From an uncultured virus (IMG/VR IMGVR_UViG_3300010158_000053) (taxonomy: Duplodnaviria; Heunggongvirae; Uroviricota; Caudoviricetes): a stretch of DNA of 64,000 nt. Positions within the stretch are counted from its first letter, which is position 1. Each line of letters opens with the position of its first letter. Both the position numbers and the translations under genes were made by a program. Positions 48,834 through 63,954 of this stretch are shown piece by piece. Under the pieces are notes generated by a model that saw only the letters and a program-made list of their open reading frames with translations, did not search any database and was not told where the DNA came from. The DNA lies in IMG/VR virus record IMGVR_UViG_3300010158_000053, positions 1 to 64,000 of that record; one strand, 5' to 3'.

Positions 48834-49140
48834 CCCGTTTCTCCGCTTGTTGTTGCTCACACCAAGCAATCGTTCTGTCCAACATCTCTATTGTAATCTT
48901 GTCTGGATCAATTCCAAAATGTTGTTTAATCTTGGCCTCGTTGCGTTTAACTTCTTCAAATGCCAAATCACTTGTGCGGCATTCTTCAGTCCACAATGCC
49001 GCACAGCATTCACTAATCAACAACTCGGCGAATATTTCTAGTCTAGATCGCTCTACTTTGCCGGTATCTTCATCCGTCAAGTCACCTAGTAAAATACTTA
49101 CGCCTGCCTGTTCAGCAAGTTTTTTAATTCGTTCGTTCAT
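48826..49140 (-). CDS. Hypothetical protein (MNERI/IKQHFG family)
   Basis: 104 aa. Confidence 0.7.
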   Translation of the reverse strand: MNERIKKLAEQAGVSILLGDLTDEDTGKVERSRLEIFAELLISECCAALWTEECRTSDLAFEEVKRNEAKIKQHFGIDPDKITIEMLDRTIAWCEQQQAEKRDE

Positions 49141-50048
49141 ACCATCTCCAAATAGTTACGCACCCAGGCTAGGCGTGCTTGTTCATCCATTGCAGTATAT
49201 TCTACTATATTAGCACGTATCGCGTCAACTAGTGGATAGTATTCTTCATCGAGGTTTTTCTTGATGTCGGCTTCCATATTCACTAACTTGTCAGTGCGAG
49301 GATTACGAGCAACCCACTTGCTGGTCAAGTAGTATGGACTCTTGATCTTAAACGCTTGACCGTTCACAGTATAGGCCACAAATCCTTCGTGGCGAACCTT
49401 TTTAGACTCTGCTACCAACTCACCCACAGTCATGTGATAAGATTCTACTGCATAACACTTTAACGTATCTTCAGCAAATATCCGCCACACCTCATCACAA
49501 CCAAAGCCGTGAACTCGAGAGTTCCAGGCATTTTCACGCCAGCCTAAGAAATACATCCCAGTCTTTTCTACAATGATATGTGGGTCGCTTGGATGCACAC
49601 ATTCAAACATCAAAGTATGACCTCGAGCACCCAGCACTGCCATTTGCCAGTCAGCCCAGCAGGAGTGCTTCAGCATCATTTCTTTAGCATAGTCAACATA
49701 GTCGTTAGCAGTGGAACCAGTGGTGCTCACTAGGATATCGTTGTTATGCCAAGTCATTGCCACCATAAATCCGTTGACCTTACGATAAGCAGTTACAGGA
49801 GTATCATCAGTCAACACAGGAGCATTGGCTTCTACGCGGAAATTATAGATCTTTGTAAATGGCCGTGATACTACATTGAAGTCAGCATCCACAATTGTGC
49901 CGCGACATTCTTCAAGAAAGTCATTCCACAAGTCATCGTAGAAGACTCGCTTGGAATACTTTAGCACATAGATACCATCGCCAGCAGGCTTCATACTGAC
50001 CAACCGTGGGTTAGCCAATACAAACTCTTTCAATTCATCTTTGTTCAT
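49137..50048 (-). CDS. RNA ligase, T4 Rnl1-like
   Basis: ECRG, PFTKIYN, KVNGF (motif I), FE, EGFV, KIKS. Confidence 0.8.
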   Translation of the reverse strand: MNKDELKEFVLANPRLVSMKPAGDGIYVLKYSKRVFYDDLWNDFLEECRGTIVDADFNVVSRPFTKIYNFRVEANAPVLTDDTPVTAYRKVNGFMVAMTWHNNDILVSTTGSTANDYVDYAKEMMLKHSCWADWQMAVLGARGHTLMFECVHPSDPHIIVEKTGMYFLGWRENAWNSRVHGFGCDEVWRIFAEDTLKCYAVESYHMTVGELVAESKKVRHEGFVAYTVNGQAFKIKSPYYLTSKWVARNPRTDKLVNMEADIKKNLDEEYYPLVDAIRANIVEYTAMDEQARLAWVRNYLEMV

Positions 50049-50049
50049 T

Positions 50050-50337
50050 TTAAATCCTTACTGGCTTCACGCCATCAAAACCCCATTCACTGTCTGCGTC
50101 ATCGTATGCGATATTGTAATCTGCATATCCTGGATGAGCACTGTCGTTTTTGTAATACTCGTGCTCATAGTTACCAGCACGATCCTTATCGTCTTTATTG
50201 TAACCGTAACTGTCGTAACCTTCAGGATCATACTGGACATATTCTTCAGATGGTTTGTCTGATCCTGAATATTTTGTCCACCATTCCTGATCATTCATGT
50301 ACGCACGGTTTACGGTTGGGCTGTATTTTCCACGCAT
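50050..50337 (-). CDS. Hypothetical protein
   Basis: 95 aa with GYD/GYN repeats. Confidence 0.65.
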   Translation of the reverse strand: MRGKYSPTVNRAYMNDQEWWTKYSGSDKPSEEYVQYDPEGYDSYGYNKDDKDRAGNYEHEYYKNDSAHPGYADYNIAYDDADSEWGFDGVKPVRI

Positions 50338-50338
50338 A

Positions 50339-50536
50339 TTATTCTCCTACAAATTCGCGAACCCACTCAAAACGAGTTTTGCTGGCCTTGACCCATTTAA
50401 ATTGTTCACGACGACGGTTGATCTTGTCAAAGTCAAAGCAGATAAAGATCCAGCCCTTGTCCTCGGAGAACATAACTGATTCTTGTACCTTGACAATTTG
50501 TACAATCTTATCTTTGAATTTTGCTACAATCATCAT
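50339..50536 (-). CDS. Hypothetical protein
   Basis: 65 aa, GGAG RBS. Confidence 0.65.
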   Translation of the reverse strand: MMIVAKFKDKIVQIVKVQESVMFSEDKGWIFICFDFDKINRRREQFKWVKASKTRFEWVREFVGE

Positions 50537-50569
50537 ATACTACTCCAATTAGTTACTTGCTATGAGTGT

Positions 50570-50598
50570 ATTATAGCAGAGTTTTAATGGAGTGTCAA
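50570..50598 (-). promoter_or_regulatory. sigma70-type promoter
   Basis: TTGACA-N17-TATAAT. Confidence 0.8.
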
Positions 50599-50831
50599 CC
50601 TTGTTTTAGCATCCAAACCAATACTTGATTTTGGTCCAAAAGAGCTACATCTTTGGAATGTTTTTCAACTGGGCGACTGGTAGCACCGCCATTCCAAATC
50701 TTTATCTTAATTCGACCTCGTCCGGAATTGGCGGGATACTCTTTTCCCAAACTTTTGACACGGTAGATGTTGCTGTAAAATACAACAAAGTCATCTACCT
50801 TGATCTCACGGTCGATCATATCAGTGATCAT
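50595..50831 (-). CDS. Hypothetical protein
   Basis: 78 aa. Confidence 0.65.
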   Translation of the reverse strand: MITDMIDREIKVDDFVVFYSNIYRVKSLGKEYPANSGRGRIKIKIWNGGATSRPVEKHSKDVALLDQNQVLVWMLKQG

Positions 50832-50832
50832 A

Positions 50833-51378
50833 TTAGTGATGCCCTTTGATTTGGCCTTTTAGGGCCTGTGCAACAGCATCATCCATCGAGATCGCAATCA
50901 TACCAGTTGCATCCATACCTACATCAAGGACTCTGTAGTGCTCGATTCCACTAACACCTCCATGAAGATGACCGTGTAAGTGAACAGAGCCACGATGTTG
51001 TTGATCAAATTCCTGAATTGGATAATGAAACATACATACAACAGTGCCATCATAGACCAATCGCAGGTATTGGTGTACTTCCTTAAAACACTTGCGGAAT
51101 GTGGGATCGTTCAGTGTCTTACGGTCGTGATTACCTTCAACTAAGATCTTAGTGCCGTTACAGCGGTTCATAAATTCTGCTGCCTTTTGAGCAGGCAAGA
51201 ATGCCACATCACCCAATATGTACACTGTATCTTCAGGAGCAATCAGGTCGTTCCATTCCTTGACCATTTGCTCGTTCATATAGTCTACGTCATTACGAAA
51301 CCTTGCCCGCGATACAGGACAAAAGGACATAATGTTCTTATGTCCAAAATGTAAATCACTTGTTACCCAAGTATTCAT
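50833..51378 (-). CDS. Calcineurin-like metallophosphoesterase
   Basis: SDLHFGH, LGD, GNHD, HYP, HGHLH, DVGMD. Confidence 0.88.
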   Translation of the reverse strand: MNTWVTSDLHFGHKNIMSFCPVSRARFRNDVDYMNEQMVKEWNDLIAPEDTVYILGDVAFLPAQKAAEFMNRCNGTKILVEGNHDRKTLNDPTFRKCFKEVHQYLRLVYDGTVVCMFHYPIQEFDQQHRGSVHLHGHLHGGVSGIEHYRVLDVGMDATGMIAISMDDAVAQALKGQIKGHH

Positions 51379-52397
51379 TATTCACCACTCTTTAATAAAA
51401 ATTTGTTAGAAATTGCCTTGAAGCTCACAGACTTTTCGTTACACTTGAACACCAGTCCTTCACGCTCTTGCTTGGGATTCAATTCTGAATTACCTTCAGC
51501 GTACTTCAACAGATTTTCAATAGTTTCGCCGCCGCCCAAACGATCATTAGAGATCAAAATAGGGCAGTGATTCAACTTGTGTTCAGTTACAAACGCCACT
51601 CGTTCAGCAGGAGTGTAGTAACGACCTGCATCAATGTCATAAATGTCGTAAACATAAAAGTCTTGATCACGCATTTGGTACTTGTTACCTTGAATGCCGT
51701 TTCCAATCAGTTCACCTTGGACTGCAATGTTACCACCTGCAATCTTCAACTTTTCTTCTAAGTCGTGCCGGATAGCGGCACGCCACAATGAATTATCAAC
51801 ATTACGCTTGAGGTCAAGGTTGCGTGAGCAAACACCAACTTCACCATCAATAACATAAACAGTCATTGAAGACCCATCGAGTTTCTCTGTAATTTCCCAA
51901 GATAGATTTTCAGTCTTCCACTCCGCCAACTCTGCTGACAAGTTTTGAATACGCTCTTGGTCAGTCTTCGGAATCACTGAAGGGAACATACCTTTGACTT
52001 CACCTGCAAGTTCTGCGGGGATGGGTGCTTCATACTTGGTGATGCCAAGCAGTTCAGAAACATCCATACCTTCGTAAATCTCACCAACCTTGTCTAGAAC
52101 AGTGTATCGGTCCAATAGAAGGCCCTGTGACAGTTGACCACGCAACTTTACAGTACGCAGACGTTCACCCTTGACTTCATTGAAAACACGTGGAAAGTTT
52201 CCTTTTGATAGAAATGGTGCAATGTTATGTGGAATCCAAGAATCAATTTCGCAGTACACAGCCAGATCACCAGCAGTGTATTCACCCTTCTTTACCACGC
52301 AGGTCCATCCACCTACGATAGCGCATTCAATTGCATCAGCGCCTTCAATAGGACGCAGTGCATCAATCTTACGGATAGTTGCCATTTTACGAGTCAT
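51378..52397 (-). CDS. RNA ligase, DRB0094/Rnl2-superfamily with N-terminal OB domain
   Basis: PIEGADAIE, RGQLSQGL, KTDQERIQN, EKLDGSS, QGEL, EGLVFK, FKAISN. Confidence 0.85.
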   Translation of the reverse strand: MTRKMATIRKIDALRPIEGADAIECAIVGGWTCVVKKGEYTAGDLAVYCEIDSWIPHNIAPFLSKGNFPRVFNEVKGERLRTVKLRGQLSQGLLLDRYTVLDKVGEIYEGMDVSELLGITKYEAPIPAELAGEVKGMFPSVIPKTDQERIQNLSAELAEWKTENLSWEITEKLDGSSMTVYVIDGEVGVCSRNLDLKRNVDNSLWRAAIRHDLEEKLKIAGGNIAVQGELIGNGIQGNKYQMRDQDFYVYDIYDIDAGRYYTPAERVAFVTEHKLNHCPILISNDRLGGGETIENLLKYAEGNSELNPKQEREGLVFKCNEKSVSFKAISNKFLLKSGE

Positions 52398-52409: not shown

Positions 52410-53084
52410 TTACCAAAGTAAATCAAAATTACCAGCCAATACCTTTTTAACACTGGCTGTACGATCTGTTAAGTGATCCTTGACAACATCATCTTGGAAA
52501 CGGTAAGTACGAATTTTATCACCACGCATACCCGACCCAACCTGTTGCCGCCTATCACTTGCTATGTGTGTATTATAACTGGTTTTAGTCAGTTTGTCAA
52601 CTCTTTGCTGTATATCTGTCCTAGCTTGATCCAAACTGTTTTGACGACTACGGCACTGTGCAGTGGCCACTTCTCCAGTGGGAATATGAGTTATTCGGCA
52701 GGAATTTTGGTGCTTGTTACGGTGCTGACCTCCAGCACCAGTGCCGCTGTACCACTCGATTTTTAAATCAGTTTCTGGTATAGCCACAACTCTTGGACGA
52801 TCAGTGTCATCTATGATGGCCACGGTCACTGTGCTGGTATGAACACGTCCTTTCCTTTCGGTGGGTGGAACACGCTGTATGCGATGTCCTCCAGGTTCAT
52901 TCTTTAAGCCGGATAGGTCAGTGCCCTGTACTTCTAAATGAAGTTCGCCTTGGTACTCACCTATCAGGCGGGTAGTTCAGCCCCGGCTTTGTGCAAACTT
53001 GATATAGGCTTGTGCCAGATCTCGTACAAACAGTTTACTATCTTCGCCACCTTCGGCAGCTCTAATCTCAATAATCTTCTTCAT
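52410..53084 (-). CDS. Class I peptide chain release factor, RF1-type, lacking domain 1, with in-frame UGA at codon 36
   Basis: MKKIIEIRAAEGGEDSKLF...AQSRG*TTR...EPGGHRIQRVPPTERKGRVHTSTVTVA...GAGGQHRNK...RSRQNS...KIRTY; TGA at 52977-52979. Confidence 0.85.
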
Positions 53085-53319
53085 TTTCAATTACCCTTTC
53101 ATTTCTTTTTGATGCGCCTATTCGGCTGGTTTTGTTCCAATCGTATTTAACACCATCTGGACAAACACCATCACGAATACTGTCTACACCAAACATACCT
53201 ACAATTTCAAAGTCTTGACCTTTGATAGTCACAAACTCATTCATGTGCTTGGCAAGATTCATCGCCTCAGTCAGTGTTAAAACTTTGAATGTTTCTTCTT
53301 TACCAATCACTTCAAACAT
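53068..53319 (-). CDS. Hypothetical protein
   Basis: 83 aa overlapping the RF start. Confidence 0.7.
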   Translation of the reverse strand: MFEVIGKEETFKVLTLTEAMNLAKHMNEFVTIKGQDFEIVGMFGVDSIRDGVCPDGVKYDWNKTSRIGASKRNERVIENEEDY

Positions 53320-53328
53320 TTATTACTT

Positions 53329-54213
53329 TCATCTTGAATAATTATTATTCCTAATATTTTGATCTATTTCATTTAATACGTGATCTAAATGTGCCAACGC
53401 TTGGTGATAGTTTTGGATCCAACACATTGCCGCAAATCTGCGTGTCATATAATGACCACGTTTGAGATTTTCTTTTTGTAAATTCTCAATATACCAAATA
53501 CATTCTTCTTCTGTAAAAAACAAGGGTATGTTTTCCCAACCGTGAAATCCAAAACTAAAGTTCAATCCTGTAAGTAATTCAGTACTAAACTTCAATGACA
53601 GATCAAGCGGGGCAAATTTAATACCGTGTGCTTTTTCCAAATACTCCCTGTATCGAACAGAGATACTCCAATCTTCACAACGTTGATAATTCTTATCTGA
53701 AATGAATACACTGATCTCAGGATCCTGTAGTGCAGTAATAAGTTTCTTACTACGCAGACTACAGCCACCACCACCATTGTACCATCCATTGGGCGAACTA
53801 TCATAGACTTCGTGTTGTATCAAACTATTGGCCAATGGATACCACTTTTTATGAGTAGGAGATCCAATGTAGTCATAATCCAAGAACTCGTCAGTCCATT
53901 CATCTTGATTGACGCAAAACCCATCATACTGAATACTGATCACGTGTTCAGTGTTGATATATGGGCCCATATGCTTAAACAAGAAGTCACAGTATATATC
54001 CAATGTTAGCGGTACTGGCTTCATCGTAGTCGTATCATACGGTGCGATGGAAGTTGCAATATCGTGATAGGTGTGTTGATACTTCAAATTGGGCAGGACC
54101 CGATCTGAAAATACCAACACTTCATCAAACTTCTTTGCCTCACAGCTTTTATTGATAGAAAACTCTGTAAGCTCGTGATTGATATTGCTAACACTCATCA
54201 ATGAGATACTCAT
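53329..54213 (-). CDS. Glycosyltransferase-like protein (DUF5672-like)
   Basis: IQYDGF, FLDYDYIG, NGGGGCSLRSKKL, ED, FGFHG. Confidence 0.65.
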   Translation of the reverse strand: MSISLMSVSNINHELTEFSINKSCEAKKFDEVLVFSDRVLPNLKYQHTYHDIATSIAPYDTTTMKPVPLTLDIYCDFLFKHMGPYINTEHVISIQYDGFCVNQDEWTDEFLDYDYIGSPTHKKWYPLANSLIQHEVYDSSPNGWYNGGGGCSLRSKKLITALQDPEISVFISDKNYQRCEDWSISVRYREYLEKAHGIKFAPLDLSLKFSTELLTGLNFSFGFHGWENIPLFFTEEECIWYIENLQKENLKRGHYMTRRFAAMCWIQNYHQALAHLDHVLNEIDQNIRNNNYSR

Positions 54214-54773
54214 TAGATATCGCCTTCTCGTTCTCTACGAGCTTTTCTTTCTTTGGCCAATGTGAAAACTTTTTCATTATCATTGGCCCAGTCGATTTCC
54301 TTAGGGAGAATGATCCCAAACTCAGTTGTTACACCGTTGATAGTGTGGGGCTCATTCTCATCATAGGTCCAACCCAAGTGCTTCATCATACGATGTTTGA
54401 CACACAGGTTAGGGCTACGGAAAACTTCAGTGTCATCAAAGCCCATCATAACACCAACTTCACAAACTGCACCACTACGACAAACACCTGCGTGGCAATG
54501 AACGATAACGTTCATATGGTTAGCCAATGCGTGTTGCAACAGTTGAGCCAACTCAGCAGCCTGTTTGTGACTGCATCGCATTGACTCATCCAAGCATTTG
54601 TCATTTTCTTCAATGTCCAAAAATTTAAATTGATGGACTTCCTTAAAGGTATACAAGGGGGCGGGATATTCCATATCTGGATCGCATATCTGGATCAACA
54701 TAGAGTTCTCACCTGGGTTAATATGTAACCCTCGTTTAATGTCGCTCAGTGCAACATTTTGTATCCACGGCAT
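54213..54773 (-). CDS. Cys-dependent (CX5R) phosphatase-like protein
   Basis: IVHCHAGVCRS. Confidence 0.78.
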   Translation of the reverse strand: MPWIQNVALSDIKRGLHINPGENSMLIQICDPDMEYPAPLYTFKEVHQFKFLDIEENDKCLDESMRCSHKQAAELAQLLQHALANHMNVIVHCHAGVCRSGAVCEVGVMMGFDDTEVFRSPNLCVKHRMMKHLGWTYDENEPHTINGVTTEFGIILPKEIDWANDNEKVFTLAKERKARREREGDI

Positions 54774-55087
54774 TACTGCAAATCCCAAATCTTTCCACCA
54801 GCATCACGGTAATAGTCGTCGTTAGCATCCACGGCGGTTTCTTCTTTGTCCACTGGATCAATTACATACCATTGTGCACTACCCGACTTTTGATAAGAAT
54901 TAATAACACCAACTGTGGCAACCAACGGAGCAGGTTGCTCAGTAGTTGTGGTAGTAGTTGTAACGGTAGTATGCGTTACTTCTTCATCGTCAAAATCATT
55001 ATACATCACAGGCTCACTCCTTCGAATAACGGCCACAATAATAGCCACAAAAAACAATAAGAAAAACAAAACAATAAGAAAACTCAT
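54773..55087 (-). CDS. Membrane-anchored protein
   Basis: N-terminal TM, Thr run. Confidence 0.7.
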   Translation of the reverse strand: MSFLIVLFFLLFFVAIIVAVIRRSEPVMYNDFDDEEVTHTTVTTTTTTTEQPAPLVATVGVINSYQKSGSAQWYVIDPVDKEETAVDANDDYYRDAGGKIWDLQ

Positions 55088-63486: not shown

Positions 63487-63666
63487 GAGTTTCTGTTGCG
63501 AGGTATGTCTTACCCCAGGCTGCGTTTAGGCGGCCAATGCGTAAACTGAATCGTTTGCATTTATAGGTTTTGTGTCTTCGGCCGGGAAACCCCAACCCTA
63601 ACGGCTTCTACATTGCCGGACTGTCCATTTCATTACTCTTGACCCTGTCGAAACCATGGCAGGCCC
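63487..63666 (-). ncRNA. ssrA: tmRNA coding piece (5' acceptor strand, D-loop, tag ORF ANDSVYALAA at 63526-63558)
   Basis: Begins GGGCCTGCCATGGTTTCGAC; ATAAAT-GCA resume context; tag ends YALAA-TAA. Confidence 0.9.
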
Positions 63667-63679
63667 ATCATAAGAAAAC

Positions 63680-63877
63680 TTACTTTATAAAACGAGGAAT
63701 ACGAATTTCTGTACCAGCATATTGAAATGAATCTAACATTGGAACTAATGATTCAATATCACTAGCATTGTGTCGTTCCATCATCGTATGCTCACCATCT
63801 ATCAACATAAAGTACAACTTGGTTGTACCTTCGTCAACTTGCGGCTTGAAAATATATTCTAAATCTTGTAAAATCAT
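63680..63877 (-). CDS. 65-aa hypothetical protein inside the tmRNA intervening segment
   Basis: AAGGAAG RBS directly after the CCA; ORF fills the 223-nt spacer. Confidence 0.6.
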   Translation of the reverse strand: MILQDLEYIFKPQVDEGTTKLYFMLIDGEHTMMERHNASDIESLVPMLDSFQYAGTEIRIPRFIK

Positions 63878-63889
63878 CAAACTTCCTTA

Positions 63890-63954
63890 TGGTGGACCTG
63901 GCGGGAGTCGAACCCGCGTCCAGAATCCTTTTCAATCGACTTCATACAGTCTTA
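63890..63954 (-). ncRNA. ssrA: tmRNA acceptor piece (T arm, 3' acceptor strand, CCA)
   Basis: GGACGCGGGTTCGACTCCCGCCAGGTCCACCA; CAGGTCC pairs with GGGCCTG giving G3.U70. Confidence 0.9.

Follow-up and report, generated by a model that had tools for sequence, protein, structure and literature searches.

A conserved in-frame UGA interrupts the gene for a short RF1-type release factor of large phages and is probably bypassed by readthrough

Introduction

Two described systems come closest to the gene analyzed here, namely bacterial prfB and a release-factor gene of Mimivirus. The prfB gene is cut early by a stop codon that must be bypassed, through an autoregulatory +1 frameshift at CUU UGA C in domain 1, and its yield is tied to the efficiency of termination. 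Here we report on a stretch of 64,000 nucleotides (hereafter the window; positions 1 to 64,000 of the IMG/VR record IMGVR_UViG_3300010158_000053 of an uncultured virus), in which the gene for a short release factor of the RF1 type is interrupted at codon 36 by an in-frame TGA. Like prfB, this gene has an early stop that must be bypassed, which would tie the yield of the factor to termination. It differs from prfB in three respects: there is no change of frame at the stop, which is preceded by GGC, so that the bypass would be readthrough; the site lies in domain 2, at a tryptophan (Trp) codon; and the factor is RF1-type, so that the UGA is probably read by another factor. In sister lineages the likeness goes further and includes a Shine-Dalgarno-like (SD-like) element, CTT followed by a stop, and C after the stop. 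A survey from 2025 reports such control for prfB and not for prfA, with no convincing case for the latter in 12,753 genomes (PMC12421855).

The release-factor genes R726 of Mimivirus and mg280 of Megavirus require both UGA readthrough and a frameshift, and the insertion of Trp by a viral transfer RNA (tRNA), a tRNA-Trp with a Hirsh-like D arm, has been proposed (Jeudy et al. 2012, PMC3521657). The likeness to our case is that of a viral termination-factor gene with UGA readthrough, and a U11:A24 pair is also present in the tRNA-Trp of one of the phages examined below. The Mimivirus factor is of the eukaryotic/archaeal eRF1 type and belongs to an amoebal virus, and both events occur in one gene. 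In the phage family, the factor is of the bacterial RF1 type, and there is mostly one event per gene, the kind of which differs by clade. A leaky UGA is also known from the coat gene of phage Q-beta, where the normal tRNA-Trp reads UGA as Trp at a low level to give the A1 protein. There, readthrough extends an already complete protein at its C-terminus, whereas nothing functional is expected from the phage release-factor gene without readthrough.

Genes for RF1 or other release factors have been described in the 'Jade' phages (10.1101/2021.08.26.457843) and in huge phages (Al-Shayeb 2020, PMC7162821), with no internal stop mentioned in the accessible parts of these sources. As described there, the RF1 gene of the 'Jade' phages is written in the standard code inside a code-change module, in genomes with many in-frame TGAs, which is not so in the window genome. 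A search in the main texts of open-access papers and bioRxiv preprints turned up no account of a phage RF1-type gene with an interruption, and the +1 frameshift cassettes at the same codon in the sister clade are new here.

Results

An in-frame TGA at codon 36

The gene starts with an ATG at 53084 on the minus strand and runs for 35 codons (beginning MKKIIEIRAAEGGEDSKLF and ending AQSRG) to the TGA at 52977-52979, which is followed by A. Beyond the TGA the frame is unchanged for another 188 codons, up to a TAA stop at 52410-52412 on the minus strand. The read-through product has 224 residues and includes PPT at codons 73-75 (within RIQRVPPTE), GGQ at codons 118-120, and KIRTY. This layout had been put forward in an initial annotation of the DNA, and each of its elements, from the AAGGG ribosome-binding site and the ATG to the UGA-A context and the common frame up to GGQ and KIRTY, is present in the sequence. 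The features are as follows.

52410..53084, minus strand: whole recoded gene, 224 codons with internal TGA and terminal TAA; encodes a short RF1-type release factor made up of domains 2-4
53094..53098, minus strand: AAGGG, likely ribosome-binding site, 9 nt before the ATG, as read from the sequence
52980..53084, minus strand: open reading frame (ORF) part 1, first beta-strand and long helix of domain 2; 35 codons (in the structural model, strand at residues 2-9 and helix at residues 14-33)
52977..52979, minus strand: in-frame TGA, codon 36, context GGC TGA A, at a conserved Trp position (conservation, RF1 alignment, independent DNA run)
52956..52976, minus strand: stretch of low synonymous variation, about 21 nt directly 3' of the TGA (ACT ACC CGC CTG ATA GGT GAG), candidate readthrough context
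52954..52974, minus strand: hairpin proposed earlier; folds here, not conserved
52413..52976, minus strand: ORF part 2, remaining domain 2 with PPT (52860-52868), domain 3 with GGQ (52725-52733), and domain 4; 188 codons

Gene callers split the gene, as is seen from truncated representatives in protein collections, and the two parts could be taken for separate polypeptides. The first in-frame start past the TGA lies 49 codons downstream, inside domain 2, which argues against this.

Conservation of the TGA and selection on both parts

The TGA was found at this codon in all of the first 80 relatives, which are 67-100% identical. After three more scans, 239 viral loci had been examined, of which 232 fit the N-terminal motif and correspond to 128 distinct nucleotide sequences. 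TGA is present in every one of these (128/128), at pairwise identities down to 45%. These counts cover the examined loci; the scans counted another 377-510 relatives beyond those. Of the seven loci that missed the motif, six display the TGA by visual inspection. The seventh, L205, has an N-terminal part ending in AAC AAC TGA and the remainder in the +1 frame, with no CTT (about 1290-1440). This may reflect a shift site of another kind or a mistake in the assembly. Scans with single proteins gave two viral loci for P0003 and none for P0012. Among 50,697 phage records searched with tblastn, nothing exceeded 41% identity, and no close cultured relative was thus found.

Both parts of the interrupted gene are under purifying selection, with dN/dS (the ratio of nonsynonymous to synonymous substitution rates) of 0.14 for the 31 codons before the stop, counted from the IEIR motif, and 0.13 after it, based on the 254 unsaturated pairs out of 1500 sampled. 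An independent DNA run from another sample (X2) contains a contig piece that covers 52953-53124 with no differences. Thus, the invariant TGA, the purifying selection and the independent reads indicate that the TGA is neither an error nor the mark of a pseudogene. The three checks that the initial annotation had suggested (TGA as opposed to TGG in relatives, dN/dS on both sides and independent reads) all came out in favor of a genuine internal stop.

The product is predicted to be an RF1-type factor without domain 1

Searches with Pfam profiles matched the product to PCRF with 86 bits, over profile positions 103-194 of 194 (the last 92), and to RF-1 with 69 bits. With the NCBIfam profiles, the product scored 199 bits for RF1, 122 for RF2 and 41 for PrfH. 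The matches to the RF1 profiles begin at position 107 of 347 and 115 of 361, and the ORF starts 3 residues before the match, suggesting that the product is without domain 1. The N-terminal domain 1 of about 105 residues is indeed missing from the product, and its 199 bits fall below the curated cut-offs of 400 and 423 bits for full-length RF1. The similarity to RF1 is also higher than that to RF2 when expressed as expectation values (E 2.5e-42 versus 9.4e-27).

A PxT tripeptide and a preceding Gln are characteristic of RF1, whereas SPF and Val are found in RF2. Alignment A1 has no exception to the RF1-type Gln (Q70), and T75 is nearly invariant. Across the distinct viral relatives, PPT is present in 127 of 128 and GGQ in all 128. 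The AlphaFold2 model, calculated from an alignment of 36 sequences, has a mean predicted local distance difference test score of 91.8, and its best Foldseek match is ribosome-bound RF1 (template-modeling score TMq 0.91, root-mean-square deviation 2.1 A). In the model, the TGA position follows the long first helix (residues 14-33) and precedes the next strand. The helix is encoded by the first part of the ORF, and it is presumably its tip that reads U1 of stop codons. The TGA codon aligns with a Trp of the solved RF1 structure of Thermotoga (T.) maritima, and Trp is found at the site in four of four full-length RF1 representatives; a wider alignment has it in 78 of its 86 long representatives. 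This bears out the earlier statement that bacterial RF1 has Trp at this position. The profile and structure matches likewise agree with the earlier assignment, and the gene product is, as judged from its sequence, an RF1-type release factor without domain 1.

The same residues bear on self-regulation as in prfB, in which the short factor would read UGA despite its PxT tripeptide and terminate at its own codon 36. This would be the classic design for a release-factor gene, and exactly one gene with a release-factor domain was identified in each of five near-complete genomes. Residues of the RF1 type are expected to exclude G at the second stop position, and the near-constant PPT, the invariant Q70 and the higher similarity to RF1 argue against this explanation, which we consider unlikely.

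Another candidate identity was PrfH, which is also a release-factor homologue without domain 1, and the window gene, too, has RNA ligase genes beside it. The product matches PrfH only weakly (41 bits against a cut-off of 166.65; E 3.2e-6 for PDB entry 9mor), PrfH appears only at rank 50 of the Foldseek list with a TM of 0.67, and the motifs for stop-codon reading are kept. The identity as PrfH was thus rejected. No RtcB gene was seen among the scanned neighbors, and no wider search for RtcB was made. The idea of a repair pair like PrfH-RtcB, formed with the adjacent DRB0094-type RNA ligase, was dropped because the ligase is present at only 4 of 80 loci.

Sequence context of the stop codon

The hairpin that had been proposed just 3' of the TGA (52954-52974) forms in the window sequence and is not conserved in relatives. 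Of 62 distinct rows of the alignment, 40 cannot form one and 35 cannot form the other of its two apical pairs, and the covariation score is 0.104 as compared to a shuffled mean of 0.117. A CGCC/GGCG pairing is 92.7% intact and displays zero covariation. For the proposed hairpin and any other local helix, RNAalifold gave -0.5 kcal/mol or nothing.

Conservation is instead seen in the primary sequence around the stop (GGC TGA ACT ACC CGC CTG ATA). Among 72 distinct sequences, synonymous differences reach only 0.33-0.43 of the expected number in 5-codon windows starting at codons 35-39, which is the minimum of the gene, and 0.40-0.62 in those starting at codons 40-42. The sequence directly after the stop is thus constrained beyond its coding content. 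Further synonymous dips were observed at codons 52-56 (52917-52931; 0.47-0.62) and near codons 160 and 170 (0.47-0.48; about 52590-52606 and 52560-52576 on the minus strand).

The base after the TGA is A in 95, G in 28, C in 5 and U in none of the 128 distinct sequences, which are related to each other and hence not independent counts; a U follows 224 of the 732 ordinary TGA stops in these genomes. In more distant members, 13 different codons occur next to the stop, none of which begins with U. The codon before the stop encodes Gly in 125 of 128 sequences. A U at the +4 position is reported to lower readthrough (PMC5289835).

Genetic code and tRNAs

The initial annotation had stated that TGA is a normal stop in other genes, and this is so. 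In the full record of 76.7 kb (G000), 39 of 113 greedily selected ORFs of at least 60 amino acids end in TGA, many of them as ATGA overlaps. The main stop of the phage is UAA (67 of 113 ORFs). With code 11, the coding density is 0.88-0.92 in G000 and its four complete relatives (G001-G004), and reading TGA as sense yields only the lengthening that the removal of any stop would give.

A search for two long segments joined by a single TGA gave 7 candidates for G000 and 21 for G002. The release-factor gene has the longest gap to a start codon among these, 49 codons in G000 and 44 in G002, and the other merges lie on the non-coding strand, lie in another frame of a long ORF, or have a start close behind. 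It is the only convincing in-frame TGA merge in the two genomes. A cross-genome search for conserved in-frame TGA or TAG codons suffers from noise, as conserved genes give matches in their non-coding frames too; it points to the release-factor gene on the coding strand of G000 when judged against the ORF table. The suggestion in the initial annotation of an incipient UGA-recoding switch is therefore not upheld, as no other gene has a convincing conserved in-frame TGA.

These results also bear on a group of explanations in which TGA is simply sense or the gene is not one unit, that is genome-wide or late-gene TGA-to-Trp recoding in the style of code 4, selenocysteine, a pseudogene or sequencing error, or two separate polypeptides. 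RF1 genes do occur in TGA-recoded phages (Borges preprint, 10.1101/2021.08.26.457843), and TGA can encode selenocysteine. The recoding variant is countered by the many ORFs that end in TGA, by the lack of any gain in coding density and by the unconvincing nature of the other merges. Selenocysteine is countered by the lack of a conserved hairpin and by the fact that the only tRNA(UCA) genes called by ARAGORN are normal-sized and occur in one relative only (G004). Together with the conservation data and the distant internal start codon, this makes the whole group highly improbable.

We searched for tRNAs that might decode the UGA. ARAGORN found no tRNA(UCA) in G001, G002 and G003, nor among the 22 tRNAs of the 76.7-kb fragment. 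None of these 22 is a suppressor of any kind, and no tRNA lies downstream of the transfer-messenger RNA (tmRNA) in the window. A tRNA-Trp(CCA) with G73 is present in all four complete relatives. All four also have a suppressor tRNA near the tmRNA, which is CUA in G001-G003 and two genes with UCA in G004.

G001 174391-174465: suppressor tRNA
G002 363408-363482: suppressor tRNA
G003 258611-258769: suppressor tRNA, two copies
G004 199793-200005: suppressor tRNAs

The two tRNA(UCA) genes of G004 are 77 nt long with a normal arm layout and lie about 550 nt downstream of its tmRNA. All of these suppressor tRNAs sit in genomes with the standard code.

An alternative is thus a timing switch, in which the factor would be made once a phage-encoded opal suppressor tRNA(UCA) is expressed. 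The genes in G004, the presence of some suppressor tRNA beside the tmRNA in all four complete relatives, and the fragmentary state of the window record speak for it. The same TGA of the release-factor gene is kept in all four, and since G001-G003 have tRNA(CUA) and no tRNA(UCA), a phage opal suppressor is not the general decoder. The suppressor tRNAs moreover have A73, in contrast to the G73 of the phage tRNA-Trp, and are thus not obviously acceptors of Trp. With the lack of any suppressor among the tRNAs of the record, we regard such a switch as quite improbable, although tRNA(UCA) may contribute to decoding in phages like G004. The scan for tRNA(UCA) proposed in the initial annotation thus gave a divided answer: nothing in G001-G003 or the fragment, and a real suppressor route in at least one lineage.

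Both copies of tRNA-Trp(CCA) in G001 (287208-287284 and 300784-300860) have U11:A24 in the D stem, which is presumably the pair made by the Hirsh UGA-suppressor mutation of E. coli. The corresponding pair is U:G in G002 and C:G in G003, so that this is a lead only. A tRNA-Trp with a 4-bp anticodon stem was also considered and rejected, as the stems of the phage tRNA-Trp genes have 5 bp (four genes) or 6 bp (G004). The tRNA arrays further contain odd tRNA-like calls, one with a 2-base 'anticodon' (G000 69435-69511, outside the window) and one with a 4-base 'anticodon' (G002 227532-227606), which may be odd loops, introns or tRNAs resembling frameshift suppressors.

Frameshift cassettes and a second site in sister lineages

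A HMMER search over 1.84 billion representatives recovered many proteins of about 180-187 residues that begin just past the site and look like truncated gene calls. The same search also recovered short full-length forms. Four of these (P0001, P0005, P0006 and P0011) have Trp at the site, are nested in the TGA clade and stand each beside a truncated form. They derive only from short Logan/ENA contigs and were rejected as relatives with TGG, being taken as probable gene calls made with table 4, as judged from the proteins. One uninterrupted member of JGI origin with Ala at the site (P0004) is known as a protein only.

A scan of metagenomes yielded 80 more distant loci, 70 of which were resolved by motif rules and 10 of which were not. 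In 48 loci, the N-terminal part lies in the -1 frame relative to the rest, with the junction CTT TGA (40 loci), CTT TAG (7 loci) or CTT TAA (1 locus). One in-frame TGA is present in 14 loci and two in-frame TGAs in 2 loci (L344 and L349), and 6 loci are uninterrupted. The frameshift-type loci have the components of a prfB cassette: CTT is the last sense codon in 48 of 48, the stop is UGA in 40 and is followed by C in 39, and 34 of the loci have a GGAGG-like (SD-like) element in the 12 nt upstream, its modal spacing from CTT being 3 nt. Past the stop, normal release-factor sequence continues in the +1 frame. The cassette is that of prfB, placed in a different release-factor family and elsewhere in the protein.

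In 41 of these 48 loci, CTT stands either in place of the Trp codon or one codon later (N-terminal part of 32 codons in 38 and 33 codons in 3). Six others have it some 10 codons further downstream, at a second site (42 codons in 5 and 44 in 1), and the N-terminal part of one locus has 37 codons. The second site also hosts most of the in-frame TGAs in the metagenome set. The sequence there is G-TGA-L/I in the sister lineage, and the lone uninterrupted member (L359) has TGG in its place, a natural experiment that supports decoding as Trp. In viral contigs of up to 389 kb, another 32 loci comprised 16 of the frameshift type, 7 with an in-frame stop (one TAG), 2 uninterrupted and 7 unresolved. At the locus L447, the second site has an in-frame TAG in place of TGA. 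Genes next to ten of the metagenome loci are mostly orphans or have functions typical of large phages, so that a viral origin of the metagenome loci is likely.

In a FastTree phylogeny built from 136 C-terminal parts, with full-length RF1 as the root, a single clade with support 100 unites the 60 sequences of the readthrough type at the first site. This clade is sister to a frameshift clade of 66 leaves, within which a second-site group is nested, and there are about 11 changes of type on the tree. The presence of a prfB-type cassette at the same codon in sister lineages suggests that the interruption by a stop is selected and serves as a regulatory device. For self-regulation, these complete cassettes, mostly with UGA, are a point in favor, as is the tripeptide, which varies in the frameshift clade (PPN, PPS, PAN and SPT).

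Genome setting and neighboring genes

The window record is 76.7 kb long and estimated by CheckV to be 19% complete. It contains tail-fiber genes, phage RNA ligases, NAMPT, a Lon-like protease and 22 tRNA genes. Relatives of the release-factor gene are found in contigs of 320-364 kb, two of which have terminal repeats, and the source is a jumbo phage. The runs holding the phage DNA are labeled as freshwater metagenomes. The other features of the surroundings are:

53068..53319, minus strand: upstream ORF, 83 codons, no known family, overlapping the start of the release-factor gene by 17 nt; tblastn match in 63 of 80 loci
53329-54213, minus strand: DUF5672 gene, present in 1 of 80 relatives
49137-52397 and 54213-54788, minus strand: genes for RNA-end processing around the release-factor gene
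63526-63951, minus strand: permuted (two-piece) tmRNA (Rfam tmRNA_permuted, 119 bits; ARAGORN tag ANDSVYALAA)

The upstream ORF of 83 codons had no match to Pfam, PHROG or release factors. The DUF5672 gene looks like a recent insertion; a contig from run X2 joins 53320 to 54217 and skips it. The RNA-end-processing set consists of a T4 RnlA-like ligase, a phosphoesterase (phrog_547), a DRB0094-type RNA ligase with an OB domain and a dual-specificity phosphatase. Over the 80 relatives, the phosphatase was identified in 69, the phosphoesterase in 47 and the DRB0094 ligase in 4. A tmRNA is found in all four complete relatives.

Discussion

The gene described in the initial annotation as a UGA-gated RF1-type factor has held up in its core, based on conservation, selection, independent reads and the sister cassettes, while the hairpin and the incipient recoding have fallen away. 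We consider it probable that programmed readthrough of the UGA, most likely with insertion of Trp, couples the supply of the factor to the efficiency of UGA termination, and thus to RF2.

The proposed mechanism is as follows. The ribosome would reach the UGA at codon 36, where host RF2 would usually terminate and release a peptide of 35 residues. This peptide comprises only the first strand and the helix of domain 2, so that a working factor needs recoding. In a fraction of the passes, a near-cognate Trp-tRNA(CCA), from the host or a phage copy, would read UGA as Trp and give the factor of 224 residues. The insertion of Trp would restore the ancestral residue, and tRNA-Trp would be the simplest decoder. 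UGA is read only by RF2, and the share of ribosomes that pass should therefore depend on RF2 activity, with the output of the factor going up when UGA termination is slow and down when it is efficient. Since the reading motifs are of the RF1 type (UAA/UAG), this would be cross-regulation by RF2 capacity rather than self-regulation. Throughout the readthrough cases in the clade of the window, the stop is always UGA despite the RF1-type factor. The 3' sequence and the avoidance of U after the UGA may tune the leak. As UAA is the main stop of the phage, the factor could sustain UAA termination if RF2 fails. Extra tRNA-Trp(CCA) is reported to increase UGA readthrough in E. coli (PMC13092985).

A different explanation is a fixed attenuator, in which the leaky stop sets a constant low yield of a dose-sensitive factor, or a fixed ratio of peptide to factor, and nothing is sensed. 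Overproduced release factors are reported to harm bacteria (PMC12421855). A weak start site would suffice for this purpose, yet the family has retained two stop-based mechanisms at one codon, and again at a second site, with repeated changes between types, which argues that the stop itself matters. We judge a fixed attenuator to be quite unlikely as well.

Several points weigh against cross-regulation through RF2. We infer the readthrough, its rate, the inserted residue and the dependence on RF2 from sequence data, and a fixed low leak would also account for the conservation without sensing. RNA contigs from small parts of three metatranscriptome runs span only 53016-53162 and not the TGA, and their signal may stem from carry-over of DNA. 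No conserved RNA structure that might act as a stimulator was found near the TGA by RNAalifold or pair counts. The variation of the tripeptide in the frameshift clade makes the codon specificity of the family less certain and self-regulation conceivable. One complete relative has two tRNA(UCA) genes, and the window genome, about one-fifth of which is at hand, may have a suppressor of its own. Finally, dS was saturated in most of the sampled pairs, and the trees were built with FastTree only.

For the family as a whole, we tentatively suggest that the gene for the factor without domain 1 in large phages is a sensor of the state of stop decoding, in which a leaky UGA and a CUU-UGA cassette have been exchanged several times. 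Nearly all members of this RF1-type family in large phages are recoded, by either of two mechanisms placed at a shared codon, which contradicts the view that RF1-type genes are without such control. The natural pairs of readthrough and frameshift cassettes offer material on what makes a bacterial stop leaky or shifty. The results also imply that gene-calling programs regularly cut these genes short or change to table 4 without notice.

Should the factor turn out to recognize UGA, or each of the three stops, this specificity would be a first in the RF1 lineage, and so would self-regulation. If it does not read UGA, the gene would provide the first cross-wired feedback between RF1 and RF2, by which the phage would take over UAA and UAG termination when host RF2 fails, for example after host shut-off or a defense response. 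The finding makes it possible to test directly why huge phages carry termination factors, and whether they monitor the RF2 of their hosts.

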